Below are positions 1,318 to 44,099 of a DNA stretch of 64,000 bases, in pieces. Made by a program: the position numbers and the translations under genes. The stretch's first letter is position 1; each line of letters starts with the position of its first letter. Under the pieces are notes generated by a model. It did not search any database. It saw nothing but the letters and a program-made list of their open reading frames with translations, and was not told the origin of the DNA. The stretch comes from a virus, in the IMG/VR virus record IMGVR_UViG_3300044922_000175, positions 32,001 through 96,000 of that record; one strand, 5' to 3'.

Positions 1318-1668
1318 TTAAGAGTTATTTGGGTTAGATAATGATTCTCCGTCTTCTTCATCTACCTTTTGAATTAACATTTTGTCACGGTCTTCTGAGT
1401 TAAACCAATAGTCAACTACCTTGTTTAAGTTACCTACAAAGGCACCAAAAAGAATAAGTAACATTTCTTTCCAGTTCTCTTGGATTTCTATTCCAAAAAA
1501 TACTGCAGAGTTAATACCAAGGATAATAAAGAAGAACAAACCTAATACAATTGCTGTAATCTTCCAACGGTTGGCTTGCATTTGTTGTAGCATGTAATAG
1601 AATCTGTTCTTAGGATCTACTACTACTGGTTCTGCTTGGTTAAGACCAAGTGCTTTTTTAATGTTCAT
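1318..1668 (-). CDS. Two-TM membrane protein (holin-like C-terminal motif)
   Basis: Hydrophobic segments ITAIVLGLFFFIILGINSAVFF and MLLILFGAFVGNLNKVVDYWF. 4-nt overlap with the upstream gene. Confidence 0.65.
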   Translation of the reverse strand: MNIKKALGLNQAEPVVVDPKNRFYYMLQQMQANRWKITAIVLGLFFFIILGINSAVFFGIEIQENWKEMLLILFGAFVGNLNKVVDYWFNSEDRDKMLIQKVDEEDGESLSNPNNS

Positions 1669-3557: not shown

Positions 3558-4003
3558 TTTTTTATGTTATTTACAGCGTGTTCTATGAGCCAAGGCTCAG
3601 GATTTTCTAAGTTTTTTATAAAGCTAAGTTCATACATGTAGCAAAATGTCTCCTCTTTTTCCGGAATCATTTCTATACCTTTCTTTGCTATATAAAGATG
3701 TAAGCTTTCATGTACTAGAACTACAGCAATGTTATTTATAGAGTTTAGTTTAAGATCGGCTACAGCTATGTAGATGTGACCTTTACCATTCTCTAGTTCA
3801 CAAGAAGAGTAGGGACTTATCATAAAAGATACCTGAGAACAATTTGTATCAAGCATCTTGTACTTATCTATGTCTACCTTCTTTATCAGTTGAATTGCTG
3901 AATCAACTTTTAAATCCCAACCGTCCCCAGCTTTGTCAATTTTGATTTGAGCAAAACAAGGGACGGCTAAGAATAAAAAGAGGTTAATTACTAACCCCTT
4001 CAT
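3554..4003 (-). CDS. Putative exported zinc metallopeptidase (HExxH)
   Basis: Signal-like N-terminus MKGLVINLFLFLAVPCFA|Q, VLVHESLH motif and downstream EE as candidate third ligand. Confidence 0.6.
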   Translation of the reverse strand: MKGLVINLFLFLAVPCFAQIKIDKAGDGWDLKVDSAIQLIKKVDIDKYKMLDTNCSQVSFMISPYSSCELENGKGHIYIAVADLKLNSINNIAVVLVHESLHLYIAKKGIEMIPEKEETFCYMYELSFIKNLENPEPWLIEHAVNNIKK

Positions 4004-19400: not shown

Positions 19401-22400
19401 TTCAGAAGAAAGCTCTGGTGTAGTTAACTCAACAAATCTAACTTTACCATTAGGTAGTTTAACAACAGCTACATATCTACCATAGTTAAGTAAAGTATCA
19501 TAACCACTTTTGTATCTGGCATCATCAACTTCTTTAATGGTTGACTCTAATAAATCAGGATCAATATCTGTAATAGGAGAACCTTCTACAGTTATAATAG
19601 AACCATTCTTATATTTATTCTTTCTATCAATTACATAGATACCATTATTAATAGTGTTATATGCTAATTCAGAAAGTTTTGGTCTTTCCTCATCACGAGA
19701 TAGGAACTCATAAGATCCTAAACCAATATTAACATTTGCAACCTTCTTAAGATCTGAATAAGAAATCTCAACAGAATCGCTGCTACCTAATTTAGATTTT
19801 AAATAATTTAATAAAGCAACTTTGTTTTTGTAACTAGCTTTTATATTAGCAACAGCTTGATTATATCTACCATTCTTTAAATAGAAAGCTTGCTTAACTC
19901 TATCTGCATTTATTCTATCATAAGAGATAGGATTACCATTTACATCTAAGAATTGGAAAGATGTAGGGTTAGGTAAGTAACCAATCTCTTCACCATTAAA
20001 TACTAATGCAATTGCATATGAATCAGTAAATAAACCAAGTGATTGATTTTCTTTCTGATCTTCTAATTTAAGGTAGGCATATCTCTGAGGTGATTTATTT
20101 AGATTAGTAAATCTAATACTTAATCCCTTTTGTAATTGTTCTATGGGAGTATCTCTTAATAAATTACTTAGACGTGCTGTTGCATCTTTCTGAGATTCAC
20201 CCTCCATTCTTTTACCCCAAGCTTTATCTAATACACTAATAGAATCAAACCTTGATGCGTATTCTTTTTTGTCAATAGGAGCTCTCTCTAATTTAAATCC
20301 AGTAAAAGATTTAGTAGTAAGAACGGCACCAGTTTTAACATTCTTAAGTTTAAGATTAGAACCAGCAGCAATTTCTGCAGGATAAGAGAGCACTATATAC
20401 TCATTGTTTTTTGTATCTGATATAATCTGTCCATTAACTAATGGAACATTATCAAATACAAACTCCTTTTTATTTTTAGCTAAATAGTTACCAATTCCTT
20501 TTTGTGCTTTCTGAGCTTCTTCTAAACTTGTATAAGCATCTACCTCAAAAGGTATTAACTCATCTGGTTTATTTGTTGCATTAATAGCATTAGTACCATC
20601 ATTTAATTTTACAAAATAAATATCTCCAATTTCTGCACCTTCAATAGATCCGCTAAGCTTAGTTATAAATACACCATTATATCCAGGTGAAACAACGCTT
20701 TCACCCTCTTCTAATGCTGTAGTAACGTATTGATTCTCATCTCTTTGTTGAATAAAGATATCAGAGAATGTTACATTATTTTTATTTAATACATCAAAGA
20801 TTAAAGGTGTTCTAGCATTAGTTCTTAGCCACTCTGTAAACTCAGGTTTAGTTTCTGTAATGGCATCATACGTTCCTTCTAACTCTGTAATAGCATTAAT
20901 AATACTAATCGCTTTTTTACTTGTTACAAACTCTTCAAATGATACAGGAATATCAGCTTCTCTTAAAGTCTTTAAGTAATCATCATAAGCTCTACGTACA
21001 ATTGTCTGAGTAAACTCACTTACATCTTCAATATCTTCTGAACCAAATTCTTCCTCTTCTTCTGTAGTATCTGTAGAAAATTGAGATGGCTCTTTGGGTT
21101 TAGTATTAGATGGAGTTTGTTTTACTTCAACTTTTGTTTTTACTTCAAACTCTGATACAAAAGCTTTAATATTCTGAAATCTAGCATCTTCTACACCAAA
21201 TAATTTATTGCTATTTAAATCTCTAAACTTTATATCTGGATCAGTTAGAATGAGTTCTTTAAGCTCATCAAAACTATTTGTTTCTAAATTCTTTAAATAT
21301 TTAAGATCAATAACAAATCCACCAGCAGCTAATGATTTTAAGAATATACCAATCTTAGATGTTTCAGCATATTTCTTAAATGCTTTCTTAAAGAACTCCG
21401 CCCTTCTTTTATCTCTAGCAACAATTAAAGTGCGCTCTCTTTGAGCAAGCTTAATAAAATTATTAGGATCATATAAATCAGACAGAACTTTGTTAAAATT
21501 AGTCTTATCATAATTAAGCGCATAGTAATCAGTAAAGATTCTATAGGCTTCATTTAGATCTGCAGGATTAAGTGTAGTACCTTTCTCATCTAAAAGAACC
21601 TTCATGTAATCAGTAAAGGCTTTCTTTAAATAAGAGGTCTTTCTTACTTCTACAGGATCATTAATATTCTCAATACGGGCAAGATTAGTTTTTAAAGATT
21701 CTAAAGCTTTTAACTTCTTCTTCTTATTATTAGTAATCTCAATAAGAGCTGGATCAGTTATATCTTTACTTGAATCAATTTCTGCAGTTAATAAGTTTAT
21801 TTCTGTATCAATACTTGGAATACTCAAAGTAGCTGTAACATCAGAGTAACTTAAATTACCAACTCCTGCAATAGATGACATCTGTTTTGTCAAATCAGCC
21901 ATGCGAGTTTTAGCTTGCTCTAAACCATGCAAACTAAATACTGCAGTTTTACGGGCCTCTTCAAAAGCTTTATGGTTTTGTAACTCATTAATAAATCCAG
22001 TAATAGCTTCGGGAGTATCAGCAAATTTATATGTATTAGGATTATAAGGATTCTTAAATGCAGAAAACTGCTCATACTGATCTTTAATTTGACCAGCTCT
22101 ATCAATAGTAATATCTAATACTTGCTTTGCTTCTTCATCAGTAACATCATCCTTTAAATCAAATGCCTCTTTTAATTCTTCACCAGTCATTTGTTTCATA
22201 TCCTCTAGTTTCTGAATTAAGAAATCAAACTTATTAGTTTGTAGTGCTGTATAAACACTATTAAATCGAGCTATATCCTTAAGATCGTGGAATGCTTTTT
22301 CATCAAATGATTTTCTAGCATTAACCATATCAGTACCTGCTTTAATTTGTACTAATAAGTTATCTATATCAAGAGCTAAAACTTTATTACCATTATTAAT

Positions 22401-26793: not shown

Positions 26794-29700
26794 TTAAGAG
26801 CCCTTAGTTTTCCTTCTGTTAGACATTGCAGATTGTGCTCCTAAAATATTACCACGCTCATCTATATCAATATCACCCATAATACCTCTAACCATAGCAG
26901 CCTGAACTGTAGGATTAGTAGTATCAATACCCATCTCAAGAAAATATTGTTTTAGATCTTTAGCTTGTTGTCCAGGTGTAATTTTTCTACCTGGATTATA
27001 ATAAGTTTTAAGAGCAGCAGGATCAACAAAGAAATTAGGATATAAACTGTTCATTTGATCTGTCATGAATCTATTTTCTAATGCAGCATTTACATAATCT
27101 ACAGCCTCTCTTCTAGCAGCTCTCTTAGAATTATCAAATTGCTGATTAGCAATAACAGTTTTATCATAGAAGTCATTAGCCATTAAAGCATTTCTAAAGT
27201 TTGCTTCATTGTTTATTTGCTTATTAGCTTGTTCAAACTGATTAGCTACACCAACATTTAAGTTATTATATCTACCTAACACATTAGCAGCATTAGCTAA
27301 ACTCTTACCTTGTACATCAGAGAATCTTGTATTGAAAGCTTGTGGTCCTGTAAACTGCGCCAAATTTGCAGAAGCAATATTAGCTAGTTCAGCATTATTA
27401 GCTAACTCCCTATTAGGATCATAGAATGTAGGCTCCATAGGTTCTGGTACAAATTGTGCCATTCTAGGATTATATTTATTAATACTAGCTAAGTCACCAA
27501 CAGCAGCTGCAGTATTTAATACATCTTGAGGATAGAAACCAATAGGTCTTCTTGGAGTTCTAGAAACTTCTAACTCATTTGTTTCAAGTTGTTCTCTATT
27601 AGTTTCTGTATTTGGCTTTTTTGGTTTTTTAGGAATAGCATCATAATATTCAAATCCAAATTTATTATTATCATTACCTAAATCTTTTCTAAATTGTGAT
27701 TCAGGTAAATATCTTTGAAATGCTCTAGAAAATTCTCCAAAGAATTTAGGATCATTATAGATATCTGCATTTGAAATATCAACATTAGGTTTAAAGCCTA
27801 TAATATCATAAGCAGCTTTACGTAATGCTACTTCATTTAATTTATCTGCTTCTTCTTTGCCTAAATTTCTTTCTACAATTTTATATTCATAATCTTGTGG
27901 ATTAAGACCAGCATAAAAATTATTATACTTATTTCCAGTTTTTGCAGAACCACTCTGAACTATATTCTTATAACCATATTCATTTAATATCGGAGTTAAA
28001 CTTTCTAATATATTAAATCTATCATTATAATTTTGTTTATTATCAAGAGCAACTCTATATGTTCCTCTTCCAGCATCCCAAGTAATAATACCTTTATCAA
28101 TATATGGTTTTAATGCTTCGTTTTGAGATTTTAAAACTTTACCTGAAGCATCTACAATACTTATTGTATTACCTTTAGTAATTCTCTTACCTTTACTACC
28201 ATTAGGTAATATAATTTCTTCTACATACTCTTTTTCACCTGTCACTTGACCAGCAGTTTGATATTCTTCTAACTCTCCACCATATTCTTTCTTATTAAGT
28301 ATATCTTGACGTCTATCGTTAATCATACTATCAAGATAGGCATCTGTAATTTGTGAAGATTGTGGTTCTGATTTAGCTTTAGGTTTAGCTTTAATAGTTA
28401 CGGGTTCTATTCTAGCAACATCAATATTAGGATTTTCTCTAGCTGCCTCTAATAATAAAGCAGTATCTTGAGAACCTGCAGGATCAGACATTGTATCTTC
28501 AACTATCTGATTAGCTTGTTCAGGACTAGCATTTTTAAGATATTCTACTTTTTGTTCTGGAGACAAAACTCTATATGCTGCAGCACTGAGAATTCCAACT
28601 GCAGGAGCAGCCTCTAGTCCTGCTGTAACAGCACTAGATATATCTAAATTCTTATAAAAATTTTTGACTGGGTTTACTACTCTTGAAATACCCTGTGAAA
28701 TACCTTCTTGAATAGGTTGTAATCTTTTTGCTAATGGTTTTAAAAGATATTCAGGTTGCATAGGTTTAATAAGTCGACCAAAAGCTAAATAATTAAGAGG
28801 ATCCGTTGCAAAATTATATGAAGGATCCCCAGTAAACATGTAATTTAAATTACCAGACCAGTTAAAAGGATTGAAAGGATTAGATTGTTTAGCATATGCA
28901 GCTCTTTGTTCTGGAGTAGTATTAGCAAAACTTCCGGTTTTCCAAAATCCTTTTCCATCAGGAAGTGTTTGATTTGAACTATTAGAATTAACACTCTGTC
29001 CAATCTGAGCTTTAGGAATACCACCATATCTAGCCATCATCATACCTTCTTCAGGTGATGGTGGTAAGAACTGGGCTGGATCTAATCCTACTTTATTCAT
29101 GTAAGGCATAGCAATCTGTGGAACACCTTGTGGAAATCCTTTCTGTGATTCTTGTACAAGAGCTAACTTACCTAAATTAGAGATGTAGTTATCAGCCATC
29201 ATAACAGCTGTCTTTTTACGTAAGGGGTCACTATCAGAATATAAACCTTCGCGCAACTCTTTACTATTAAGATCAAACTTCTTAGAAATTTTAGCTGGAG
29301 TGTAACCACCTTTCTTAGCAGCAAAACCAAAAGATTCTAATATAGCGGGATCTTTAATCTTCATAGCTTTTGTATCCGAGTAAATAAAACTATCTGGTGT
29401 AGCTTTTTCTCCAGACAATGGTGTACCACCTTCTGAGTGACGCTTGCCACCAATTTTAAAGAACTCAGGAATTGCACTATTAGTACCTTTACGTATTAAA
29501 GTCTCTCCTTTCTCTGCTTCTAATACAGACATAGATCTAGGATCCGGTTGTAATGTCTGGTTATATGCAGGTTCTTGTTCTTCTTGTTCTGCACCAGAAA
29601 ACTTATTAACCATATAAGCTGAGTTACCATATAACTGGTTAACAGCATTTTGATTCTGACTACCACCATATCCAGCTTGGGGTAAACTTGTAATTTTTAC

Positions 29701-30378
29701 TTTTCTTTTCATTTCTCCACCCATTTGGGCCTCTTTATTGTAATCACCTTTTATATAATCATCTGGTCTGAAACCAGGACCAAAAGCAAATTCATTAAAA
29801 TTATAGTCACCTCTGTTACCAGACTGACCCTCTTCTCTGGCATATGCTAAATTATCTGATAAAAACTGATCTCTAAGATCACGCTTTGCAAATCTATTAT
29901 CTATTTGATTTGCTAAACCACGGAATATATCTGTGCCAGCTAAGATTGCTTGACCAACATAAGGATTACCTTTTTGATTTTGACTATTTGCATCTGTAAA
30001 ATTCTTAAGATAATTACTTTTATCCTGTGCAGCTAATATACTTGGAGGAGTAGTAGATGCCACTTCTCCCTCTCTTAAAGTTTGCTCTTGATTACGTATG
30101 TCTTGAGACATTCTAGAACCAGGAATACTAGGATCGTATGTAGGAATACCAAAATCTTTTTTTCTTTTAAAAAAATCACCGGTCATACTTAATTTTCCAT
30201 TCTGTTTCTCCCATTGCTGTTGCGTAGGAACATTTAATCCCATCATATCAGGAGTAATAGCTTTAGGCATACTTCCTAATGGAGGATAAATATCATAAGG
30301 TTTAATGCCTTGTGATGGAATATTATTAAAACCCATTTGAGCTTTTGGTAAGCTCTTAACTCTTACTTTCTTTTTCAT
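26794..30378 (-). CDS. Head cargo protein with GG-motif repeats
   Basis: 1194 aa. EAEKGETL...HSEGGTPL segment typical of crAss-like structural proteins. Duplicated MKxKV(R/K)xxSLPxA(Q/G)xG leader. Asn/Gln-rich coiled C-terminus. Confidence 0.55.
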   Translation of the reverse strand: MKKKVRVKSLPKAQMGFNNIPSQGIKPYDIYPPLGSMPKAITPDMMGLNVPTQQQWEKQNGKLSMTGDFFKRKKDFGIPTYDPSIPGSRMSQDIRNQEQTLREGEVASTTPPSILAAQDKSNYLKNFTDANSQNQKGNPYVGQAILAGTDIFRGLANQIDNRFAKRDLRDQFLSDNLAYAREEGQSGNRGDYNFNEFAFGPGFRPDDYIKGDYNKEAQMGGEMKRKVKITSLPQAGYGGSQNQNAVNQLYGNSAYMVNKFSGAEQEEQEPAYNQTLQPDPRSMSVLEAEKGETLIRKGTNSAIPEFFKIGGKRHSEGGTPLSGEKATPDSFIYSDTKAMKIKDPAILESFGFAAKKGGYTPAKISKKFDLNSKELREGLYSDSDPLRKKTAVMMADNYISNLGKLALVQESQKGFPQGVPQIAMPYMNKVGLDPAQFLPPSPEEGMMMARYGGIPKAQIGQSVNSNSSNQTLPDGKGFWKTGSFANTTPEQRAAYAKQSNPFNPFNWSGNLNYMFTGDPSYNFATDPLNYLAFGRLIKPMQPEYLLKPLAKRLQPIQEGISQGISRVVNPVKNFYKNLDISSAVTAGLEAAPAVGILSAAAYRVLSPEQKVEYLKNASPEQANQIVEDTMSDPAGSQDTALLLEAARENPNIDVARIEPVTIKAKPKAKSEPQSSQITDAYLDSMINDRRQDILNKKEYGGELEEYQTAGQVTGEKEYVEEIILPNGSKGKRITKGNTISIVDASGKVLKSQNEALKPYIDKGIITWDAGRGTYRVALDNKQNYNDRFNILESLTPILNEYGYKNIVQSGSAKTGNKYNNFYAGLNPQDYEYKIVERNLGKEEADKLNEVALRKAAYDIIGFKPNVDISNADIYNDPKFFGEFSRAFQRYLPESQFRKDLGNDNNKFGFEYYDAIPKKPKKPNTETNREQLETNELEVSRTPRRPIGFYPQDVLNTAAAVGDLASINKYNPRMAQFVPEPMEPTFYDPNRELANNAELANIASANLAQFTGPQAFNTRFSDVQGKSLANAANVLGRYNNLNVGVANQFEQANKQINNEANFRNALMANDFYDKTVIANQQFDNSKRAARREAVDYVNAALENRFMTDQMNSLYPNFFVDPAALKTYYNPGRKITPGQQAKDLKQYFLEMGIDTTNPTVQAAMVRGIMGDIDIDERGNILGAQSAMSNRRKTKGS

Positions 30379-30382
30379 TGTA

Positions 30383-32710
30383 TTAGTCTAAATACTCAAT
30401 ACCATAACCCTGATCAATCAATGCTTGAATCTCATCAGGATGTAATTCTAATTCAGAACCTTGAGTCATACCACCAAATTGTTTCTTCCAACCTGCGGCA
30501 TTTCTAGCAAAGTTAGCTCTTTTAACTTGTGTTGCACTATAGTCCTCTTTATTTGCAAGTACCTTTCTAGCAAATTCTTGCACACCCATACCGGCTCTAT
30601 TAGCTGACTCAGTAAATTTACCTTTGTTAGCAGGATTAATATAGATACCACCATTCTTCATCTGACCAGTTTGTCCTTGTTGAATAGCTTGCATAATTTT
30701 TTGAATAGCTTCTTGTTGCTCTAAAGGAGGTAACTGTTGTAACATCATCATAAGTTGTTCAGGATCTGTTTGAGTCATCTGTGCATACATTTGAATAGCT
30801 TGCATCATTTCATCTTGTTGACCACCTTGTTGATATACATTACCACCACACTCGTAACAAGGTTGTCCACCTTTACCATACCATGCATTTCCACTAAATG
30901 TAGAACCACCCTTCATCATATTATACATAGCATCCATATCCATTTGACCACCATACATATCAATATCACCACCATACATTCTTCTACCCATTTTACGGAG
31001 TTCTTTATTTGATGGAGTTTGATCAGTGCCTAGTCTTGGATCATTAGAATTCATAAACTCCTGATAACCTCTTTGCTTACGAGCAGCTCTAATTTCAGAG
31101 GCAATAACACCAGCAGCAGTTCCAATACCTAAACCAATACCAGTTATTGTATCATTACGTTTCTTTTTCTTAGCAGCAGCTTCTGCAGCGGCAGCTTTTT
31201 GTTCTTCTGTTAAAGCAGGACCACCTTCTTGAAATCTACGGGCTTGTTGATCAAACGCAGACTTCTGTAAATTAGTACCTTGATTATATACTTTACCGGT
31301 ATTAGGATCCACACCTTGACTAAATGTAGTTGAACTAGAAATACTTCCTGGTGCAGAACTAAATATCCTATCTCCTTTCTGATCTACAAGTGATTGAGGA
31401 TTAGAGGACTGATAATAAGAATAAATATCATTACGTGATGGTACTTCTTTTACACCAGCTTTATTAAATTGCTGAAGCTGTTGATTATAATACTGTTCAA
31501 ATCTAGGATCAGCACCAACACCAGGAGACATAAATGTATTAATAGGAGCAGAACCATAGGTTCCTCCTTCTGCCATATTAGATAATATCTTAGCTTGTAC
31601 GTAAGAAGGTAATGCTTGGAATCCTGCATTACTCGGCTCACCACCATTAGCCCAAGTACCAAAACGTTTATGCCAGTATAAAGGAGAGAAAGGATCTGTA
31701 GCTTTAGATGAGTTTTTACCACCCATTCTATTCCAGAAATTATCTTTACGTTTCTTAGAACCATGTTGGCTAAAGTCTTTCATACCAACATAACCACCAT
31801 GTACAATTTTATACTTATCACCTTTCTTAGCTAGTACCATCCATTTCTTACCAGCTCTATCAGATTTTCTTTTAGCACCTACTTTAGTAAACCCTCTATT
31901 TTTATAACGCTGAGGAATACCACCCATCTTCATCTCTTCCATCTCACCCATGTTCATATCAATATCTTCTTCCTCTTCCGGTCCTTCTTCAGAACCTTCA
32001 TTGAATTGCATATAGTCAGCAACAGATGTAAGATAATCATCAGCTAAAGTTAACTTACTAGCTACCCAAGGCTCAACCTCTGATTCACCATTAATGAAGT
32101 TTTGCAATCTAGCAATCTTATCATTCATAGCCATTATTTGACCCATTGCCATTTCACCACCCTCATCATAATAATTATCACGCATCATCATACCTACACC
32201 ACCCATTCCCATAGCTGGCATACCCATAAATTTCATAGCAAGATTAGCCATTTTCATTTTATCTTCACCATTTCCTTCACCATTATCCATTCCTTGACCT
32301 ATAGCCATTGCAGTATTTTTTAAGAAATCACCAACAGGCTTTTGAATATTATTGCTATTATACTCATTTACTTTATCATAGTAACTACCAAGAGATTCAT
32401 AGTTATTAGGATATTGAAACATGTCTTGTCCCATACTACCACCAGTTTGAGCTTTTCTATATCCACCACCACGGCTCTTGTAAGTCTTAACAAGCCATGC
32501 AGAACCATAAGCTGAAGGCCAGGTATCAAATTTAGATTTAGCTTCTGATTTAACTCTAGAATATAACTCAGGATTAGTAGGAACATTACCACCCTTTTTC
32601 ATTTCTACAGCTTGTGGATAGGCTTTAAAAAATGCTTCTTCTGTAGGGAACATCTTATAGAACTCCTTCTCAGATTTAACACCAGCCATTTTTAAAAATT
32701 TATCTTTCAT
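30383..32710 (-). CDS. Modular head cargo protein made of short basic domains separated by GG motifs
   Basis: 775 aa, Met/Gly-rich, more than 15 xxGG motifs (MKKGG, AQTGG, DEGG, MKMGG, ANGG, AEGG, FQEGG, MYGG, QQGG, MKNGG, QFGG). Confidence 0.6.
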   Translation of the reverse strand: MKDKFLKMAGVKSEKEFYKMFPTEEAFFKAYPQAVEMKKGGNVPTNPELYSRVKSEAKSKFDTWPSAYGSAWLVKTYKSRGGGYRKAQTGGSMGQDMFQYPNNYESLGSYYDKVNEYNSNNIQKPVGDFLKNTAMAIGQGMDNGEGNGEDKMKMANLAMKFMGMPAMGMGGVGMMMRDNYYDEGGEMAMGQIMAMNDKIARLQNFINGESEVEPWVASKLTLADDYLTSVADYMQFNEGSEEGPEEEEDIDMNMGEMEEMKMGGIPQRYKNRGFTKVGAKRKSDRAGKKWMVLAKKGDKYKIVHGGYVGMKDFSQHGSKKRKDNFWNRMGGKNSSKATDPFSPLYWHKRFGTWANGGEPSNAGFQALPSYVQAKILSNMAEGGTYGSAPINTFMSPGVGADPRFEQYYNQQLQQFNKAGVKEVPSRNDIYSYYQSSNPQSLVDQKGDRIFSSAPGSISSSTTFSQGVDPNTGKVYNQGTNLQKSAFDQQARRFQEGGPALTEEQKAAAAEAAAKKKKRNDTITGIGLGIGTAAGVIASEIRAARKQRGYQEFMNSNDPRLGTDQTPSNKELRKMGRRMYGGDIDMYGGQMDMDAMYNMMKGGSTFSGNAWYGKGGQPCYECGGNVYQQGGQQDEMMQAIQMYAQMTQTDPEQLMMMLQQLPPLEQQEAIQKIMQAIQQGQTGQMKNGGIYINPANKGKFTESANRAGMGVQEFARKVLANKEDYSATQVKRANFARNAAGWKKQFGGMTQGSELELHPDEIQALIDQGYGIEYLD

Positions 32711-32711
32711 T

Positions 32712-35700
32712 TTAGTTATTGTATTTGTTTAGCCAACTAGTTTGGCCGCCTTGTTTTTGTTCTTGTAACTGTGATGCTGCAACTGCTGCAGGTGGAACCG
32801 CCCATAGTCTATTAAATAGATAAGCTAATTTTTTAGGATCTCTATCTATAATATTAAGAAATTTAGGATCTACAAATGTTTGATCAGCTGCTTCATCTAT
32901 AATATTTATTATATTTTTAGCTTGACCTGGAGTAACATTTTTAGATTGTTCAGGTGTCATGTTTAAAGCTTTTCTCAATTGCATAATTCTTGCATGCACT
33001 TCAGTAGGATTAGCCAAATAACCAGATATAGCATTTTCTCTTCCCATAAGTTTATTAGCGTCTAAACCTTGATCATATAATTGTTTCCATTTATTTGAAT
33101 TTAATCTTACTTCATCAGATAATGTTTTTCTTATATCTCCCATTTGTCCAGATTCTTTTAATAAAAAATCTGAAGTCCAATCATGTGTTCCTTCATGTGC
33201 AGTTATTGAAGATCTTTGATTTTGAGGAATATTAATATCTCTACTAACCCAACTACCATATCTTGGATTAGTATTTGCTTTTTCTAAAATTCTTCTTGTA
33301 TCTGGAGAATAATTATATAAATAACTTATACCTTTATTACCAGAATGAATATGTGAATTAGGATTCTTTAAAAATAAACTTTCACCAAGATCTTGTATTT
33401 GATTTGATATAGGGTATTGTTTTGTATTAGGTACAAAAGATTTAGCTTGCTCATAACCTAAATCAAATTTATCTTTTAAGATATTACCTCTTTGTGGAAT
33501 CCAGCCTAAGTCTGTATCTATTTTGGCCTGAGTTACTGGATCATTAATCCAATTTTTTAACCAAGTATTTCCTTCAGCAATAGCAGCTTTATTGCCTCTG
33601 TTTCTTACTGCACCTAATAGTTCATTCGCAATATTTTTAATATGACCTCCTACTGGTGGTGTAGCTGACATCTGACCTACATTAGAAACTTCTACAGGTT
33701 TGTATCCAAGCAACCAATCTTTTTGTAATAATCTTATATTAGGGTCGTCTATAGGTAAATGTCCTAATTGTGAAGTTTTAACGCCAGGTGTAATATTTCC
33801 TAAGTAAACTTCATCAACCCACTCTGGATTTAAAGGAACAGCTCCTGCATCTTTATTATTAAAAATAATCTGGTTAGGTTCTATATTTTTAACCTGTAAA
33901 ACATCAATTCCTTTGGCTTCTATTAACGCATCTGGATTATAATAAAGAGCAGTTTTAAACTCATTTGGTCTTGCAAAATAAGGAGAAGGAAATAAATCTT
34001 GATCTCTTGATTTAATCACACGTGACTCTAATGCGTCCTTTATTCCTTCTTTACCTACCCCTCTATAATATGCTTCAGGATTAGGTTTAAATGCCCAAGG
34101 ATTATATTTGTATGTATTTTTTAAAGGAGTTTGAGTTGTAAGATATTTTCCTGCTGACTTCAGGAGTCCACGTAATTCTGCAGTAGCTGGTATAACATTA
34201 ATAGCATTAAAACCAGCATCAAGAGCATTACCAGCAGCTTCACTAAAATTACCTTTAGCTAAGTTGTTTACACCCATTGCAGTATTACCTACTAAATCAA
34301 TTCCAGAAAATGGAAGAAATGCCGGATTAACAATGTCTAATACATAGTCTAATGGATCAGCAGAACCTTTACGTTGTTCTGCTTGAGATACAAATGAACT
34401 AGCTTCTCTTGCTTTCTCATAAGCAGATTTAGTTTCTCCTTGACTAATACTACCTACACGTTTAGCATACTCTGCAGCTTCAGCTGCTTTTCTATTAGCT
34501 GCACTAACGTTTGTATTTTGATTAACTACTCTTGTATTATCTGAGTATCCGGCATTACCTGCAGGACTAGTTCTCATATAGGGCTTACCTACATTAGGTG
34601 TCCAACCAGCCCAACCACCTGTCTGGAATTGATCTAACCATCCTCCATACTTCTTATTTTCTGGATAGTCATAACTATAACCTCTACCTTCAGTTACTTT
34701 AGCTTTACTAATATCTAAGTTATTTGCAGCTTTCCAATCCTGGAACTCTTTCTCAGTTCTAAATGATTTCCGGTTACCATCTTGTAATGTAACACCAATG
34801 TTATATTCTCTAGCCATTCCACCATTAGGGGTATACATATCTCTATCTATATTAGATACAAATAAAGAAGGCTTAGGTGGTTCTACTACTGGAGTATTAA
34901 CTACATCAGGAACAACTTCTGGTTTTTTATATACGTATGGTTGAACAGGTTTTTTAAATCTAAAAACAGAATTTAAATCTGGAGTAACACCAGTTAATCC
35001 TAAATCTAGAAAATCTTCTTTAGTTACACTAACAGGCCACATTCTATTTTTTCTAGCAGCATTATTTTTAATCTGAGCAGCAGTTAGTCCAACATTATAA
35101 GGTAACCATTGACCATCAGGTCTCGTTGCTCTATGATGATACGTTTGTTTTGGATTAGGTGTAAGATAATCAGATATTTTAGTTTCTAAATAATTATTTC
35201 CTGGTTTTTCATAAAGATGAGTAAATCCACCCACAACACCCGAACGAGGTCTTAGATAATGATGCATCATTTCTTCTACAGGTTTTATTATTATATTCTC
35301 ATTATAAGGAGAAGGACCTTTAGGTTTATTAGGACCCCAATACTGATTAAATAAATCATTACCTTGTAAAGAAGCAGTTTGTATATTATTTAGTCTAGTC
35401 CAGTTTTTATATTTATCAAAGGATGGTTGATATTTATTATATAAATTTAAACTATCCTGATAAAGTTGTACTTTTCTTGGATTAGATGTATAGATAGGAG
35501 GTAATGTTCCACCAGTTTGATATTCATCTAACCAACCTGTCTCACCACCCTCTTCTCTACGCTTATGATTATAGTCTATACGCTTACCAGATGTTTTCTC
35601 TCTTTTAAATCTAGCTTTCTCTGCTGATGATAATTCTGATGATGTCTTAGGGGTTGTTTCATTTACCCGTTTGCTTGGTCTGCATGCAGGATAAGGTCTA

Positions 35701-35996
35701 GAGTTTTTATCTTTACCTGATCTACCACATGTCTTACCTGTCTTAACATCCACCCATTTTTCATCAAACCACTGTCTTAAACCACCTTTACCCATCTGAG
35801 GTATCTCAGTTACATAGTCACCGGGGAATGTATAATCCTGACCGGGCATCATCATTTGCTGATTACCTAAATCATCTATACCTAATACAGGATAGTTAAC
35901 CCCCTTCATTGTTATATTAGAAGAGGGTATAATTGTAACTTCACCGGGATATGCCCACTGACCTAAAGGAGATATGATAGGTTTTTTTCTAGCCAT
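32712..35996 (-). CDS. Modular cargo protein with GG motifs, possible ADP-ribosyltransferase-like segment and C-terminal zincin
   Basis: 1094 aa. HEGTH at 33183-33197 with later PTEVHAR. YYRGVG...PSPYF segment. Repeated GG...WL(D/N)x(Y/F). Confidence 0.55.
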   Translation of the reverse strand: MARKKPIISPLGQWAYPGEVTIIPSSNITMKGVNYPVLGIDDLGNQQMMMPGQDYTFPGDYVTEIPQMGKGGLRQWFDEKWVDVKTGKTCGRSGKDKNSRPYPACRPSKRVNETTPKTSSELSSAEKARFKREKTSGKRIDYNHKRREEGGETGWLDEYQTGGTLPPIYTSNPRKVQLYQDSLNLYNKYQPSFDKYKNWTRLNNIQTASLQGNDLFNQYWGPNKPKGPSPYNENIIIKPVEEMMHHYLRPRSGVVGGFTHLYEKPGNNYLETKISDYLTPNPKQTYHHRATRPDGQWLPYNVGLTAAQIKNNAARKNRMWPVSVTKEDFLDLGLTGVTPDLNSVFRFKKPVQPYVYKKPEVVPDVVNTPVVEPPKPSLFVSNIDRDMYTPNGGMAREYNIGVTLQDGNRKSFRTEKEFQDWKAANNLDISKAKVTEGRGYSYDYPENKKYGGWLDQFQTGGWAGWTPNVGKPYMRTSPAGNAGYSDNTRVVNQNTNVSAANRKAAEAAEYAKRVGSISQGETKSAYEKAREASSFVSQAEQRKGSADPLDYVLDIVNPAFLPFSGIDLVGNTAMGVNNLAKGNFSEAAGNALDAGFNAINVIPATAELRGLLKSAGKYLTTQTPLKNTYKYNPWAFKPNPEAYYRGVGKEGIKDALESRVIKSRDQDLFPSPYFARPNEFKTALYYNPDALIEAKGIDVLQVKNIEPNQIIFNNKDAGAVPLNPEWVDEVYLGNITPGVKTSQLGHLPIDDPNIRLLQKDWLLGYKPVEVSNVGQMSATPPVGGHIKNIANELLGAVRNRGNKAAIAEGNTWLKNWINDPVTQAKIDTDLGWIPQRGNILKDKFDLGYEQAKSFVPNTKQYPISNQIQDLGESLFLKNPNSHIHSGNKGISYLYNYSPDTRRILEKANTNPRYGSWVSRDINIPQNQRSSITAHEGTHDWTSDFLLKESGQMGDIRKTLSDEVRLNSNKWKQLYDQGLDANKLMGRENAISGYLANPTEVHARIMQLRKALNMTPEQSKNVTPGQAKNIINIIDEAADQTFVDPKFLNIIDRDPKKLAYLFNRLWAVPPAAVAASQLQEQKQGGQTSWLNKYNN

Positions 35997-36000
35997 TTTA

Positions 36001-39000
36001 TTACCTAAATGAAGCTAACAATTTGTTATTACTGAGCTTCAATAAGAACTTAGATGAGCCAGAAACAAGTTTCTTTAATATAACCTTGTTAATGTAATGT
36101 CTAAACTTCTTTCTTTGTGTAGCTCCCTTATTATAATTTACATAACTTGTATTAATATTCCTAATATAACCGTTGGCTTCAGTGGTCCACATGGGTACAA
36201 AAGTCCCAGTAAATTCACCACGATCATTAGTAATATCCCAGAACTGATTGAATCTATACTTCTGTTCTTCTTTAGAGAATAGAATATCAATATCACTAGT
36301 ATTTACTAAAGGATAGTTATTAATTAAGTAAGGATTATTCTTAGGAGATAGGTTTAATATTAGGTCCCCAGAAATTTGTTCTGTGTTATATACAATAGCC
36401 CGATCAAAGTTCTCATCTAATAGATGATGATAATCTAAACAGTTAGGAGAATACTTATAACACTCTAAAATATATTCTACTGAACGGGTTGTTGTAACGG
36501 TTTGACCTTGGTTCTGTACATACTCAATCTCAAATGGATAGTCAACACCATAGTAATTACAATAAGAATTACATACTAAGTTATGTTTCCAAATGGTATT
36601 ACCTTTAACAGTCATGTAGTATGTCTTACTAGCCATTACTAAATCCGGATGCCAGTCATGAAAAGATATAAAAGCTTTAGCTTTAGGATCATAACTAACA
36701 GTCCATGATACATTATCAAAATATGTAGGATCACCTAAATTAATTATTAATCCTGCATACTCTGTAGATATGAGTTTGTTCTGTGCTCCGGCTTTAAATT
36801 TATTTTTAAACTCAGGTTTTAATTTATAGTCTTTCTTACAGAAATAAAGAATCTCATTTATGTTATCATAGGTAGTTTGTAGTCCAACTCCAATAATTGT
36901 ATTATCTAAAACTATAGGATCTAGATCAGGAAAATCTTCAAGAACAGCATAAGGACTGTATTGTGAAAACCACCACTTCATACCAGACTTAGAAATGTCT
37001 TGTATTCCTTGACCAAAAGAAAATACCTTTCCTTGGTTTTGGCTTGCATAAAACAATCCAGCTGGAGTATTGATTACAGATAATCTATTCTGACAACTAC
37101 CATATTCAAACTCAGGATCTACGTTTATTACGTTTTGTAAAGGTTGGCCGTTAAATAACTGACCATCACCAATAGTTAATTTAGTTCCACCATTAAGATC
37201 TAAAGTTTCTGCACCTTGGAATATAATAGGAGAGCTATCATTAAACATAATAACTGCACCAGTTTTACCAAAGTTTCTCATAGTTACAACCTTAGAATTA
37301 AAGTCGTAATAGTTATTTGCTAAGAACTGTCTCCAGTTATCTTTTCTTAATTCATACTGTTGCTGTAAAGAATAAAGAACTCTTGTATCATAAGAGGTAA
37401 AGCAACTTATATTATTAGGATCATATATTCTTGGTTGAAGATTACCCCATGAAACAAAGTTTGATACATGCTTACTAATACTTAAAGAGTAATCATACTT
37501 ATAGTAGTTTGTATCTTTAATATAAGCAGCATTAAACAACTGTTCATAATCACTATATGTTTTAAAATCGTAATGTCTTTTACCAGGATTATCATCATGA
37601 TCTCTGTATGCTAAGTTAATTTCTGACTCTACATAGAAATCTCTAATACCAGAATTAAACAAATACATATAAGCAAATCTAACCATCAAGAATCCTGAAG
37701 TCATTCTTCTATCAAAGTGATGATAATCATTAGGTAAAATGCTATCACTGGTTGGCTCAAAAATAATATCTAATAAATCGCCAACGTTATACTTTCCAGT
37801 GTTCATCCAATATCTTGGATAAGGAAGCATGTTGTATAATCTATAATCCCACTCTGTGCTATCTGGTAAATTCTGCATCCACTGAGTAAAATAGAAGAAT
37901 GTAGATTTTTCAGTGTAACGGTTTACATACATGTCTCCACCAAATACTAAACCAGAGGTAGCTTTAAGAGCTTTATTAATAGTCCAAAGATTTATACAGC
38001 CCACAGGTATTTGTCTAATACCATCTAATTGACCATATAAATTATCATTCTTAATTTTTAAAGCAGCGTAGTGAGCAGAAGTAACAGATGTTTGAGTATA
38101 TGCTTCTGGTTCTTTCCAGATATCTTTAGCATTAAAAGGTTTACCTTTATCATCTACACCATAAACACTTAAATCAGGCCTACCATTTTGTGAGCGTGCA
38201 ATATGACCAATAGTAAATAAAGTATTGTCTTTAGTTATTGGATCATTAATTGTTCTTTCAGTAGTTAAGACAACAGTATTTGCTCTATATAAATTATTAA
38301 TCTTATAGATAGTATCATAGTCTTGAACAACAGGATCAAGATATAAAGAGTTCTTAATACCTCTTCTTCTACTACCAACTGCAGCTTTTATAAGATTATT
38401 ATAAAAACCATGTGATACATATTGATAAGCAAACTGTCTTTTTTTACCAATGGATTCTATGATATCAACTATATTTCTTGTTGATTCTAACCAATAATAA
38501 GATACTAAAAATGCTTGACCTATTGCATAAGCAGCTGCGCCAGCAAATGCTCCAACTACTGCGCCTGATGCACCTGCTACTGGTGTTCCTATAATGCCAC
38601 CTAAAGCAATTGTCATAAGAGCAGCCTTAGTTTGATCTGCAAAATTTCCATTAGCCGCATTGGCTGCAGTTACACCAACAGCAACACCAGCTAGTGAGGA
38701 AAGTATTACAGCAGTGTCTGTTATAAATTTATCTTTAGGATGATTCTCAACCGGAATAAATCTACCAATTACATTACCGTATACCTCACCATAAACTTTT
38801 AATTCTGTGGCAGATAAAAAAGGATTTCTAAATGTTGTCTCAGGTGAGTGAAAAGAAAAGATATCCCGCTTAACACCATCAAATAATGTAACATCAACAT
38901 TACTTAATCCAGTGCTATCATATTTATCTTTATCTCTAAACGCTCCACCCTTAGTTTGTACACTTCTATTACCAGGTCTATCTAAAGTAGCTTTATCTCT

Positions 39001-40740
39001 ACCTAAGAATGGATCATGATCTAAGAAGTTATAAGGATAGTTTACATATAAACCAGTTGTAATCTTATTGCCTGCAACCTTGTCGGGTATATCATACTCC
39101 CGCATGTTATTAATAAGACCCTTGGCAATAATAGTACGGTTACCTTCTCTAGTACCCCTTAAAATCTCATAACCTATAATAGTATTTATATATTGATTAT
39201 TTTGATCTACCGGGAATTCTATATTAGAGAACTCAACACCTAAAATAATAATACTATTAGTAGTAGGATTATAGTTAGGTATTACAATGTCATCAGGCAT
39301 CTTATGATGTCTAATGTTTTCAGCACAAAGATCTCCCCAAATATCCGGTTTGTTATCAGGATACTTCTCAGTAGATTCCCAATAAGCTAGCTCACCAGAA
39401 TACTTAATGAGGCCACCATCATCTGTTGTTCCAGAAGCCGGTATTACTGTAGCTGTATTATTTACTTGCCATTCTTGCTCTTGACCAAAATCTATAATGT
39501 GATCAGGGCTAGCATTATTATTAAGTTCTCCGGGCTTTGGAGCACGTCCTGGAATATGATAACTAGATGATTTATCACCGGTGTTATAAATCCATCGTAT
39601 AAAGAAACTATATACTTCATCTCTTAAAAATGTTGGTTTGTTTCCGCCTTTATAATAATAGTCAGCGGGATATTCTACACCCACCCACTTTGCTGTAATA
39701 TTATTAGCTAGGGGTTGGTAATTAAAGTCTTCATAAGTAGTAGGACCGACTCTAATTAAATAATCATTTACATTGTACATACCAGCTGATTTCTCATATG
39801 CCGGTGTACGTAAAGGTATTTGTTCTAAAGGAATTGTTACTAATGTTGGATCAACAGCATCTAAAGATATAGTGGTTGTTTGAGTAGAATAATAACCAAT
39901 CTTTCTAGCTACAGCTTGTTGATTAACAAAGCCTATTAAAACTAATTCAAACTCATCATAGTCTGCATCTATATCACTAATGATAATATCTAATGACCCA
40001 TTAACGTTATCATGACTCCATAATGCTTGAACATTAGAGATAGCTAAGTAATCAGTAACTTTAATACCATTTACAGAATATGCAATAGTTGCTTGATAAG
40101 AACCATTTAATAATGTTCCTAAGCCATGACCCTTTTGAATTTTTATACAAGGGGTTTTAGCATAAGCTGCTAATCTTAGTTTATCACAATCTAATACCCC
40201 TGTAGATACTTCATCCTTACATGGTCCTGGATCCAGGTCATTCATAAGATATGGAACACCCTCCCAGTTTAAAGGACTATAAGGCCAAGCTTCTTCCTTA
40301 CCAATATTCATTGTTCTTGATGGGTTATTACCATCATCCCAATAAAGATTCCAAGTACAGTCAGAGGTATATTTAGATACTCCAATGATTGGATAAACCT
40401 TATTAAACTTAAAACATTGGTTTAAAGCATCATTGTGAATTGTATTATATGTGCAACCATTCTCATCAAACAAACCAATCTCTGAAGAAAAGTCATTTGT
40501 TGAGTAAATAGCCCACTTACCATTACTTATATAAATAGTACCTATAATAGTGTAGGGTACTTCTACACAAGCTATATTACTAGGTTCATTACCCAATACT
40601 CCAACATCTCCAGAAGGAGAATTGTTTACAGCATTTCTAGCATGTGTCCAATATCCCTCACCAATATAAGCATCACTTACATCTTTTAGTAAGCCTTTAT
40701 TATACAGCTCGGTGTGAATTAAACCGGTCTTACCATCCAT
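36001..40740 (-). CDS. Tail stabilisation/muzzle protein (P22 gp10-like, crAss-type)
   Basis: 1579 aa, beta-rich. C-terminal WTVSYDPKAKAFISFHDWHP motif. Follows the two ring-protein genes. Confidence 0.7.
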   Translation of the reverse strand: MDGKTGLIHTELYNKGLLKDVSDAYIGEGYWTHARNAVNNSPSGDVGVLGNEPSNIACVEVPYTIIGTIYISNGKWAIYSTNDFSSEIGLFDENGCTYNTIHNDALNQCFKFNKVYPIIGVSKYTSDCTWNLYWDDGNNPSRTMNIGKEEAWPYSPLNWEGVPYLMNDLDPGPCKDEVSTGVLDCDKLRLAAYAKTPCIKIQKGHGLGTLLNGSYQATIAYSVNGIKVTDYLAISNVQALWSHDNVNGSLDIIISDIDADYDEFELVLIGFVNQQAVARKIGYYSTQTTTISLDAVDPTLVTIPLEQIPLRTPAYEKSAGMYNVNDYLIRVGPTTYEDFNYQPLANNITAKWVGVEYPADYYYKGGNKPTFLRDEVYSFFIRWIYNTGDKSSSYHIPGRAPKPGELNNNASPDHIIDFGQEQEWQVNNTATVIPASGTTDDGGLIKYSGELAYWESTEKYPDNKPDIWGDLCAENIRHHKMPDDIVIPNYNPTTNSIIILGVEFSNIEFPVDQNNQYINTIIGYEILRGTREGNRTIIAKGLINNMREYDIPDKVAGNKITTGLYVNYPYNFLDHDPFLGRDKATLDRPGNRSVQTKGGAFRDKDKYDSTGLSNVDVTLFDGVKRDIFSFHSPETTFRNPFLSATELKVYGEVYGNVIGRFIPVENHPKDKFITDTAVILSSLAGVAVGVTAANAANGNFADQTKAALMTIALGGIIGTPVAGASGAVVGAFAGAAAYAIGQAFLVSYYWLESTRNIVDIIESIGKKRQFAYQYVSHGFYNNLIKAAVGSRRRGIKNSLYLDPVVQDYDTIYKINNLYRANTVVLTTERTINDPITKDNTLFTIGHIARSQNGRPDLSVYGVDDKGKPFNAKDIWKEPEAYTQTSVTSAHYAALKIKNDNLYGQLDGIRQIPVGCINLWTINKALKATSGLVFGGDMYVNRYTEKSTFFYFTQWMQNLPDSTEWDYRLYNMLPYPRYWMNTGKYNVGDLLDIIFEPTSDSILPNDYHHFDRRMTSGFLMVRFAYMYLFNSGIRDFYVESEINLAYRDHDDNPGKRHYDFKTYSDYEQLFNAAYIKDTNYYKYDYSLSISKHVSNFVSWGNLQPRIYDPNNISCFTSYDTRVLYSLQQQYELRKDNWRQFLANNYYDFNSKVVTMRNFGKTGAVIMFNDSSPIIFQGAETLDLNGGTKLTIGDGQLFNGQPLQNVINVDPEFEYGSCQNRLSVINTPAGLFYASQNQGKVFSFGQGIQDISKSGMKWWFSQYSPYAVLEDFPDLDPIVLDNTIIGVGLQTTYDNINEILYFCKKDYKLKPEFKNKFKAGAQNKLISTEYAGLIINLGDPTYFDNVSWTVSYDPKAKAFISFHDWHPDLVMASKTYYMTVKGNTIWKHNLVCNSYCNYYGVDYPFEIEYVQNQGQTVTTTRSVEYILECYKYSPNCLDYHHLLDENFDRAIVYNTEQISGDLILNLSPKNNPYLINNYPLVNTSDIDILFSKEEQKYRFNQFWDITNDRGEFTGTFVPMWTTEANGYIRNINTSYVNYNKGATQRKKFRHYINKVILKKLVSGSSKFLLKLSNNKLLASFR

Positions 40741-42890: not shown

Positions 42891-44099
42891 TTAAATACAG
42901 TTATAAACAAACTCTCCAATCTTACCATTGTCATAGTCATGAACCTCAATAAGGGCAGCTCTCTTACTACCAATAAACTTATTATGGTAGTGCCAGTAGT
43001 CTGTTTTAGATAGACTAGGAATAATCTTAATAGAGAAACCAGTTATTTCATCCTCTGTAATATACTCTACAGTTTTCTTCTTATGATAATGTCCAGTATA
43101 TAGAGTTCTAAATTTAGTATTACCCCAGGGCTCTGAAAATTCAGTAGCATAAACTAGTAATGAGTTCTTAGTATTTACATCTCCGTGCTCAAATGCAAAG
43201 AAGTTATTGTTAAACGTAAGTACTTTTCTCTCTGCATAATCAGCATGCCATACTATACCATCCTCTTGTACAGCTTTAGAGAGAGCATGTACTAGATGAT
43301 AAGATGATAGTCTATCATGATTACCGGGTATAAACATTATATGTAATGTCTCACACCTCTCCTTTAAAAAACGAATGCCCCGGTATAGGGCATCAAAAGC
43401 TTCAGCATATACTTTGTAGGCTTTATCAGAGTTCTCTACCGGAGTACCTGATGTAGTAGTACCATTAAACGTATCCATGTTTAATATATCACCACCTACA
43501 ACATACACTAGATCATCTATAAAGTAATTATTAGATACACTCTCTGTAAGTTGTTCTAGTGAAGCAAAGTACTGTTCTATGATATCATCATTACCATCCT
43601 TACCAATATGCATATCTTGCATAGATAGTACACAGCTTACATATCGGTGTCTCTTTTGCTTCTTTACTACTACTGGTTTATAATCCGGTTTAAAGTTTTC
43701 TATGATGTCTTTTAGATAATCTTCTTTAGTCTTTACTACTTTAGTTACTAAAGCTGATACTAACCATTTATCACTTCTCTCCTTATTCCAATATTGAGAT
43801 AACTTCCACTCTGTAGTATCTATACCCAAGATCTCTATAATCTCTTCAGGGGTTTTAGGATTAACTGATACTAATTTCTCTATCTTACCTGTGCCTTTTT
43901 CTAAATCATAAGACTCCGAATTAATTCTTTCTACATTATGTTCTGAATTGTATTTTAATTTTTTAGATTTAAATCCTAGAGACTTTTTAATCTTTAAATA
44001 TTCATCTAAAGTAATACCAATTCTTCTTGCACACTCAATATTAGATAGCTTCCATTCTTTACTTTTAGCTACCTTATCTTTTAATTCTTGTGAATACAT
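42891..44099 (-). CDS. Calcineurin-like metallophosphoesterase with N-terminal HTH-like region
   Basis: Complete motif set DMHIG, GGDILN, PGNHD, FEHGD and TGHYH. Confidence 0.85.
   Translation of the reverse strand: MYSQELKDKVAKSKEWKLSNIECARRIGITLDEYLKIKKSLGFKSKKLKYNSEHNVERINSESYDLEKGTGKIEKLVSVNPKTPEEIIEILGIDTTEWKLSQYWNKERSDKWLVSALVTKVVKTKEDYLKDIIENFKPDYKPVVVKKQKRHRYVSCVLSMQDMHIGKDGNDDIIEQYFASLEQLTESVSNNYFIDDLVYVVGGDILNMDTFNGTTTSGTPVENSDKAYKVYAEAFDALYRGIRFLKERCETLHIMFIPGNHDRLSSYHLVHALSKAVQEDGIVWHADYAERKVLTFNNNFFAFEHGDVNTKNSLLVYATEFSEPWGNTKFRTLYTGHYHKKKTVEYITEDEITGFSIKIIPSLSKTDYWHYHNKFIGSKRAALIEVHDYDNGKIGEFVYNCI

Follow-up and report, generated by a model that had tools for sequence, protein, structure and literature searches.

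Large phage proteins assembled from unrelated, shuffled domains, and thought to accompany the DNA, were described as polyvalent proteins by Iyer, Burroughs, Anand, de Souza and Aravind in 2017 (PMC5512222). No phages are more abundant in the human gut than crassviruses, which carry some 5.5 MDa of cargo protein, and in crAss001 one genomic slot encodes the cargo proteins C1 and C2, both detected in virions by mass spectrometry; C1 (gp45; PDB 7QOG; Pfam PF25725) is a floppy chain thought to pass through the portal (Bayfield et al. 2023, PMC10172136). The subject of the present work is three adjacent genes in the equivalent slot of another phage, found in a 64,000-nucleotide (nt) stretch of DNA, here called the window, which covers positions 32,001 to 96,000 of IMG/VR virus record IMGVR_UViG_3300044922_000175; the parent contig of 125.9 kb is rated 100% complete by CheckV. 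The products of these genes resemble both systems, and are divided into cassettes by a recurrent peptide that contains Gly-Gly (GG) and is termed a seam below.

All the large genes of the window lie on the minus strand. Directly downstream of a crassvirus muzzle gene, three open reading frames (ORFs) were confirmed, with the following positions and lengths in amino acids (aa):

36001..40740, minus strand: muzzle protein gene, 1579 aa (PF25731 crAss_MUZ, E=1.6e-30), which fixes the cargo position.
32712..35996, minus strand: cargo gene 1, 1094 aa, first after the muzzle gene; its N-terminal head and C-terminal cap are constant, and the cassettes between them vary.
30383..32710, minus strand: cargo gene 2, 775 aa, Met/Gln/Gly-rich, with 19 GG sites and at least 1405 homologues.
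26794..30378, minus strand: cargo gene 3, 1194 aa, with a basic N-terminal leader and few seams (aa 216-239, 353-358, 448-453 and 696-701).

ORFs of 853, 4566 and 1762 aa follow, and the three genes fill the slot between the muzzle gene and the virion RNA polymerase genes, which is the position of C1 in crAss001. Seventeen related IMG/VR loci keep an invariant order of muzzle, cargo 1 (509-1986 aa), cargo 2 (536-799 aa), cargo 3 and a protein of 853-1077 aa that lacks the motif. Beyond the upper end of the window lie tail-fibre-like genes and the genes for a crassvirus major capsid protein, portal and terminase; because this terminase is only about 26% identical to classified Crassvirales terminases, the phage is placed in a distant crAss-like lineage. 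The three ORFs most likely encode cargo proteins that are packed into the virion and injected, a status based on synteny with crAss001 and on one cassette shared with gp45, with overall homology no part of the basis. The 1194- and 853-aa ORFs have no detectable homology to gp45 and gp46 (hhalign of the 1194-aa family against gp45 gave a probability of 0.5%), and PF25725 (crAss_CARG1), the portal-binding domain of gp45, gave no match at E<=1 when all six frames of the genome were searched. A further difference is that three genes bear seams here, and one in crAss001.

The three ORFs contain 35 GG sites. A broad motif, [MFYW]xxGG or [MFYW]GG, occurs 25 times where residue shuffles predict 6.5 (maximum 14 in 300), and a strict one, [MFYWA][QKEM]xGG, 13 times against 1.3, with patterns that were defined post hoc, after inspection of the data. 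The excess of the broad motif is overwhelming for the 775-aa ORF (16 against 3.3, P<0.0005), and modest for the 1194-aa (5 against 1.5, P=0.018) and 1094-aa (4 against 1.4, P=0.047) ORFs. An earlier note on this DNA, made from the sequence alone, had reported that GG motifs recur in these ORFs, that they fall at borders of compositionally distinct segments, and that the downstream 853-, 4566- and 1762-aa proteins are not enriched in this way. All three statements hold: charge contrasts sharply between inter-GG segments (for example -16, +12, +11), and neither those three proteins nor the muzzle protein show an excess. Enrichment against the rest of the proteome had been suggested there as a check, and in the other 107 ORFs the broad motif stands at chance level (44 against 45.6 expected) and the strict one at 2 against 5. 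The same note had allowed that composition alone might explain the GG frequency. That is so for raw GG in the 1094- and 1194-aa ORFs, only the 775-aa ORF exceeding its composition (20 against 11), but it is not so for the motif. As an internal control, two Gly-rich ORFs of 2323 and 1516 aa (12.6% Gly; window 51307-62821, minus strand) have GG at or below the composition expectation. The motif is thus a real signal, marks module borders and is specific to the genes in the cargo slot; we found no paper that describes it.

The form of the seam emerges from 1517 distinct GG contexts drawn from relatives. With positions numbered as for a cut after the Gly pair, P5 is M/Y/F in 51% of contexts, P4 tends to be A/Q/K and P3 Y/K/D/E; the information lies upstream, while P1' shows a weaker bias to E/Q/I and P2' one to I/L/V. 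A typical seam therefore reads M/Y/F (P5), A/Q/K (P4), x, Gly-Gly, and one subclass reads W-L-x-x-Y/F-Q-x-Gly-Gly. The pattern is kept in the 17 related loci and is weaker in the C1-slot proteins of crAss001, cr108_1 and cr127_1. Seam columns are better conserved than others (0.92 against 0.83), and the GG pairs of seven seams are invariant in alignment A1. Two GGs within the DUF5754 match of the 775-aa ORF (aa 281-329) are probably internal to that domain and not joints. At protein starts, GG occurs within 13 residues in 39 of 120 distinct Met-starting N-termini, as it does at 35% of internal Met positions, and gene calling at seam Met codons could explain it.

Seams are also where the proteins of this family differ in content. 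Among 18 homologues of the 775-aa ORF, 78 of the 96 distinct indel segments (81%) begin and end in a seam zone, where the null gives 5.7 on average and 12 at most; a noisier alignment of 56 sequences gave 491 seam-to-seam segments against 93 in the null. Two cassettes sit at differing positions in different homologues, and shorter relatives rearrange the same cassettes. Between close relatives, DNA breakpoints lie in the codons of seams: an inserted cassette has a 12-nt string on either side, the two agreeing at 11 of 12 positions, and elsewhere a 288-aa stretch is missing between two copies of a W-L-D-x-Y/F-Q-x-GG seam, where the two alignments overlap by 30 nt. Comparison of the sequences shows that cassettes are gained, lost and moved from seam to seam. 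Seams and caps alike are located in stretches to which AlphaFold2 (AF2) assigns a low predicted local distance difference test score (pLDDT). The features of cargo gene 1 are these:

35802..35996, minus strand: N-terminal head, aa 1-65, kept irrespective of payload in 107 proteins of 605-1846 aa, with homology stopping directly after it.
35781..35801, minus strand: first seam, P-Q-M-G-K-G-G, aa 66-72, present in 59 of the 107 head-bearing proteins; related locus L005 has a 109-aa cassette inserted exactly here.
35583..35780, minus strand: basic cassette that corresponds to the C-terminal half of Pfam DUF5872 (PF19197, positions 52-113 of the profile, E=2e-12).
35508..35549, minus strand: double seam GG-x-x-G-W-L-D-E-Y-Q-T-GG, aa 150-163; recombination with the next copy removes the 288 aa in locus L008.
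34614..34655, minus strand: second W-L-D-x-F-Q-x-GG seam, aa 448-461, seen in the sequence.
32799..33656, minus strand: cassette of a zincin-like metallopeptidase, aa 781-1066; its HExxH lies at 33183-33197 and a P-T-E-x-H element at 32988-33008.
32715..32759, minus strand: C-terminal cap, GG plus three residues plus W-L-N-K-Y-N-N and stop, disordered in the AF2 model.

The ends of these proteins are constant and their middles variable. Of 107 proteins with the head of cargo 1, 87 end in GG-x(0-3)-W-L-x-x-Y-x(0-3), while the 120 aa that precede this cap fall into at least 15 unrelated groups; a search of the ESM Atlas with the head gave no usable match. In proteins of the zincin family, 97 of 171 W-[LIM]-x-x-[YF] strings either precede x(1-2)GG (49) or end the protein (48). 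Cargo 2 proteins bear a second, acidic type of cap that ends in Q-G-Y-x-I-E-x-x. This use of the seam core as an extreme C-terminal cap is new here. Since a motif at the last residues cannot be a site for removing what follows, it behaves as a portable tag on a Gly-Gly tether, and the capping of protein ends by the seam core makes it look more like a tethered loading or docking tag, which is putative, than like a protease site.

Cargo gene 2 is the richest in seams, and its Met content is three times that of the proteome. An AF2 model of its product from 56 sequences has a mean pLDDT of 43.6, with small confident islands between seams, and is usable solely as a map of order and disorder. Its features are as follows:

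32588..32710, minus strand: conserved 41-aa N-terminal segment that ends in the seam E-M-K-K-G-G, with a pLDDT dip at residues 38-41.
32462..32587, minus strand: cassette that corresponds to the N-terminal half of DUF5872 (PF19197, positions 1-44 of the profile, E=4e-8), lost seam-to-seam in some homologues (A1 columns 47-96).
31652..31918, minus strand: very basic DUF5754 cassette, aa 265-353 (PF19058, phrog_220).
31562..31639, minus strand: mobile 26-aa cassette with the core F-Q-A-L-P, aa 358-383, at two different positions among homologues.
30821..30985, minus strand: six tandem seams within 55 aa with no payload between them; alignment A2, of 56 sequences, has only four invariant columns, and three of them lie here.
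30470..30646, minus strand: cassette common to crAss001 gp45 (aa 373-428) and other crassviruses (BLASTP E=1e-4, aa 687-747 of the 775-aa ORF).
30386..30469, minus strand: acidic C-terminal cap, last residues Q-G-Y-G-I-E-Y-L-D, which the family conserves; the same cap type is found on 15 of 133 zincin-family proteins.

The cassette shared with gp45 has tblastn matches in nine named crassviruses (cr series, Rudgehvirus) among 18 phage records, and in cr50_1 it forms a gene of its own (72 aa), bordered by seams on both sides. The DUF5754 cassette terminates small stand-alone proteins with no seam after it, and the F-Q-A-L-P cassette resembles, by eye only, the stretch directly after the tail-barrel-bound segment of gp45. 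Pfam and PHROGs searches of the three ORFs found only DUF5872, DUF5754, phrog_220, phrog_20603 and phrog_23735; the 1194-aa ORF and the zincin region gave no match in either database, even at E<=1. DUF5872 is split across two genes, its C-half lying in cargo gene 1 (35583-35780) and its N-half in cargo gene 2 (32462-32587); likewise, in loci L016 and L017 cargo 1 terminates in the C-half and the following gene begins with the N-half. The two halves, which are Gly-Gly-joined in the ordinary family, therefore behave as separate cassettes.

In cargo gene 3 a seam coincides with a gene border:

29662..29733, minus strand: seam, then an internal copy of the N-terminal leader, aa 216-239; fusion point, at which homologues in L016 and L017 start.

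In both of those loci cargo gene 3 exists as two genes, split at this seam, and it is evidently a fusion, made at the seam, of two genes that have stayed separate there. The spacing from stop to next ATG is only 1 nt between cargo genes 1 and 2 and 4 nt between 2 and 3, with a change of frame each time (window 32708-32714 and 30376-30385), which suggests that their translation is coupled. The structural block also includes, amid its genes for tail and ring proteins, a 402-aa gene like those of DNA-repair exonucleases (42891-44099, minus strand; phrog_704, E=1.6e-46). Modular cargo, a conserved seam, recombination within the seam and constant ends make up the solid part of this description.

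As in polyvalent proteins, unrelated units (the DUF5872 halves, DUF5754, a zincin-like domain and other cassettes) are combined in an order that varies among homologues. Zincin-like peptidase domains are present in both, though membership in the same MPTase family is only putative. Payloads of relatives include, by their Pfam tags, cell-wall enzymes, and one relative carries PF18760, which we take to be the polyvalent-protein ADP-ribosyltransferase. The differences are that the joint peptide, the constant end caps and the cassettes of 7-60 residues are absent from the published description of polyvalent proteins, whose text contains none of the words 'glycine', 'linker' and 'crAss' (PMC5512222).

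Comparison with gp45 bears on whether seams are cut. Two parts of this protein were resolved in crAss001 virions, a portal-bound part (residues 425-552) and a tail-barrel-bound part (214-245), some 420 Angstrom apart (PMC10172136); the PDB chain has the same 842-residue numbering as is used here. Bulky-Gly-Gly sites lie at the edges of both parts. The portal-bound part begins A-F-G-G-W, with the Gly-Gly included, uncut, inside a continuous modelled stretch, and the tail-barrel part begins four residues after A-Y-G-G. The authors link the two parts by one extended chain and mention no motif, cleavage or caps; their listed peptides span no seam, so those data do not settle cutting (PMC10172136). 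A gel of crAss001 virions from 2018 showed bands from 15 to >300 kDa, including 85 and 100 kDa, with sizes near prediction, and the text assigns no band to gp45 (PMC6235969).

The reading that we prefer, and to which we would give a little less than an even chance, is that seams are uncut, Gly-Gly-tethered multivalent tags or joints. Each cargo protein consists of exchangeable small cassettes strung between a constant N-terminal element and a constant C-terminal cap, and each seam, the joint between cassettes, would be a flexible, uncut Gly-Gly tether that bears a short sticky tag. Many tag copies per chain would let the cargo bind the particle interior (capsid interior, portal or tail barrel) or other cargo chains; such binding would load the cargo and hold it in the cargo zone, and the chain would be floppy enough for threading through portal and tail. 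The repetition of seams would make every tagged cassette swappable as a by-product. A more specific proposal, offered only tentatively, is that seam and cap form the cargo-loading code of a tailed phage, in which any cassette with the tag would be packed and injected; the tags would attach to the inner side of capsid, portal or tail barrel, or would gather with one another in a condensate. The earlier note had named a capsid-targeting signal as its alternative, which comes closer to this best reading than the cleavage that it put first.

Short portable tags are known from encapsulin cargo-loading peptides, from the repeats of carboxysome CsoS2, where the motif is repeated, and from the capsid-targeting sequence of T4, which is N-terminal and is removed by the prohead protease. 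Like the encapsulin peptides, the cap is short, conserved and flexibly tethered, stands at the extreme C-terminus of unrelated cargo proteins and is associated with an HK97-fold shell; this is a functional analogy and not homology. Unlike in all three cases, there is no sequence likeness, and shell binding here is putative. The seam may also be compared with the junction motifs of polymorphic toxins, VENN in CdiA and PxxxxDPxGL in Rhs, which mark a module-exchange border: in both, a conserved peptide lies at the recombination border of exchangeable modules. The toxins have a single border, followed by a variable C-terminal toxin and an immunity gene, whereas here there are many borders, constant ends and a variable middle.

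Several points weigh against tethered tags. Binding by the tag, and any partner for it, are putative, and 19 GG sites in 775 aa are many for a docking code. Information in the motif is low (Kullback-Leibler divergence of 0.7 bit at P5 and about 0.4 at P4 and P3), and strict Gly-Gly conservation with an upstream-biased logo would fit a protease site too. The W-L-x-x-Y cap is restricted to this lineage, gp45 of crAss001 ending differently, and the leader of cargo gene 3 often has a single Gly. Finally, the uncut Gly-Gly of gp45 opens a folded domain with two further internal Gly-Gly pairs, and so may not be a typical joint.

That these are polyproteins, whose cassettes a peptidase would free as separate small effectors by cutting behind Gly-Gly, either within the head or once they are injected, is in our estimate unlikely; cleavage, if there is any, would most likely take place after injection. 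Gly-Gly-type sites are those of adenain, pS273R of African swine fever virus (ASFV), the SUMO and ubiquitin systems and C39 peptidases. Adenovirus and ASFV process core proteins at Gly-Gly|X, adenain in the register (M/L/I)-x-G-G|x, and the present proteins resemble those substrates as internal virion proteins of a dsDNA virus (packaging here being deduced from synteny) with recurrent x-x-Gly-Gly sites and a short, upstream-biased motif with an invariant terminal Gly-Gly. Free cassette order would suit independent products, natural split forms occur at seams, and zincin-like domains with an intact HExxH...E are predicted to be co-packaged, in cargo gene 1 and in the 4566-aa protein. Such processing was predicted for polyvalent proteins by Iyer et al. 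(2017, PMC5512222), and cleavage would explain how parts of gp45 come to be in both tail and capsid (PMC10172136).

The enzyme and the register speak otherwise. The earlier note inferred, as one of two options, that a head-maturation protease cuts the cargo into many peptides, and proposed a genome search for a CE-clan, C39 or M23 protease. That search gave no match at E<=1 to the CE-clan families PF02902 (C48) and PF00770 (C5), of which very divergent members could escape, none to the C39 peptidase PF03412, the partner of double-glycine leaders, at the same threshold and no detectable M23 peptidase in this complete genome; nor were there matches to the prohead proteases S77 and S78 (PF03420, PF04586), the kind that cuts internal head proteins in the systems of T4 gp21 and phiKZ gp175. 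The product encoded between the portal and capsid genes is acidic and scaffold-like and lacks HExxH. The bulky residue stands at P5 or P3, and not at P4 as in adenain sites. Pro is undepleted at P1' (5.5% against 5.1% background); to our knowledge, ubiquitin-like proteases and signal peptidases do not cleave before Pro. Only 2 of 86 distinct natural C-termini lie within three residues after Gly-Gly, and the motif core is found at extreme C-termini, where a cut would have nothing to release. Cutting at the six tandem seams would yield scraps of 7-14 residues, yet that stretch holds most of the invariant columns of A2. With the continuous modelled stretch of gp45 and the near-predicted sizes of the crAss001 gel bands, these results tell against the cutting that the earlier note had in mind.

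Candidates for a cutting enzyme would be the zincin-like domain of the giant RNA-polymerase protein, the optional one of cargo gene 1, or a host enzyme. A search with the last 314 aa of the 1094-aa ORF gave 212 cluster representatives at E<=0.001; among the 150 listed, the domain can lie anywhere in proteins that are 118-2507 aa long. Across 32 diverse members, the residues H, E and H of HExxH are invariant and the downstream Glu and His nearly so. The AF2 model of the cassette has a pLDDT of 86; Foldseek against the PDB returned nothing at E<=0.001, and in a wide VIA-align search the best structural matches were zincins with modest Z scores (PepO 6.3, PPEP-2 5.6, thermolysin 4.5); zincins at Z 6.3 to 3, ArdC (3.2) among them, made up most of the list. 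The domain almost always precedes a seam or cap. It was considered as the general seam protease and rejected: the cassette is complete in only 3 of the 17 related records and absent from a relative that is rated 100% complete and has seam-rich cargo. Being optional, it is regarded as payload.

The 4566-aa ORF (10458-24158, minus strand) has an HExxH, H-E-A-F-H, at aa 1984 and an acidic E-E-Y-L-A about 70 residues downstream. This region matches crAss001 gp47 (E=4e-6), annotated in GenBank as a putative RNA-polymerase subunit, and the counterpart in cr108_1, which has H-E-S-F-H; the protein is accordingly predicted to hold a second zincin-like domain. Iyer et al. proposed the role of processing peptidase for this domain type (PMC5512222), and no part in cleavage is known for its counterpart in N4 (PMC13434306). 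As for the host, a match to Peptidase_C48 (Ulp/SENP-like) passed the Pfam cut-off in a control genome, that of Bacteroides thetaiotaomicron, and several seams read Q-T-G-G or Q-Q-G-G, resembling SUMO processing sites; a host enzyme is thus a remote candidate, should seams be cut after injection. Other HExxH proteins were encountered. In L003 (Suoliviridae phage cr50_1) an annotated 431-aa peptidase adjoins the portal gene (1661-3180), with HExxH and, some 60 residues on, N-P-T-E, as in the zincin cassette; after it the K-G-K-F-T cassette stands alone as a 72-aa copy flanked by seams. A 149-aa ORF with H-E-S-L-H and no family match lies at window 3554-4003 (minus strand), and a 379-aa DUF2201_N metallopeptidase and VWA-like protein with HExxH is encoded in the early/replication region (genome 17101-18240, plus strand).

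Seams might instead be passive linkers that double as recombination sites, permissive Gly-Gly joints at whose repeated coding sequence illegitimate or homologous recombination joins cassettes in frame and whose peptide is not read, but this we also consider unlikely. The breakpoints inside seams described above are what it would lead one to expect, 24 of 35 sites use GGT-GGT where codon usage predicts about 17, and pLDDT is low at seams. It does not account for the residue classes at P5-P3, which are kept while upstream codons vary among seams and are the same in distant crassvirus families. An ordinary linker might be expected to drift to Ser or Asn, whereas Gly-Gly is invariant at the seven A1 seams; the core persists at C-termini, with no further segment to join, and the tandem seams are among the most conserved stretches. 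That Gly-, Met- and Tyr-rich sequence yields such strings by chance is extremely improbable, raw GG counts and post hoc patterns notwithstanding, and is refuted by composition-keeping shuffles, by the lack of excess in the Gly-rich ORFs, by the conservation of the motif columns and by their coincidence with indel ends.

Tethered tags would bear on how crassvirus cargo is selected, loaded and diversified. The seam and cap peptide, found in many relatives, is a testable candidate for a loading signal or, failing that, a processing signal, and it bears on the crAss001 puzzle of one protein with parts in both tail and capsid. Recombination inside seams explains the entry of new effector modules into the cargo, and the seam provides a simple rule for spotting cargo genes in uncultured phages. 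A loading code, if true, would explain the loading of megadaltons of rapidly swapped effector modules and would be a handle for putting foreign proteins into crassvirus particles.

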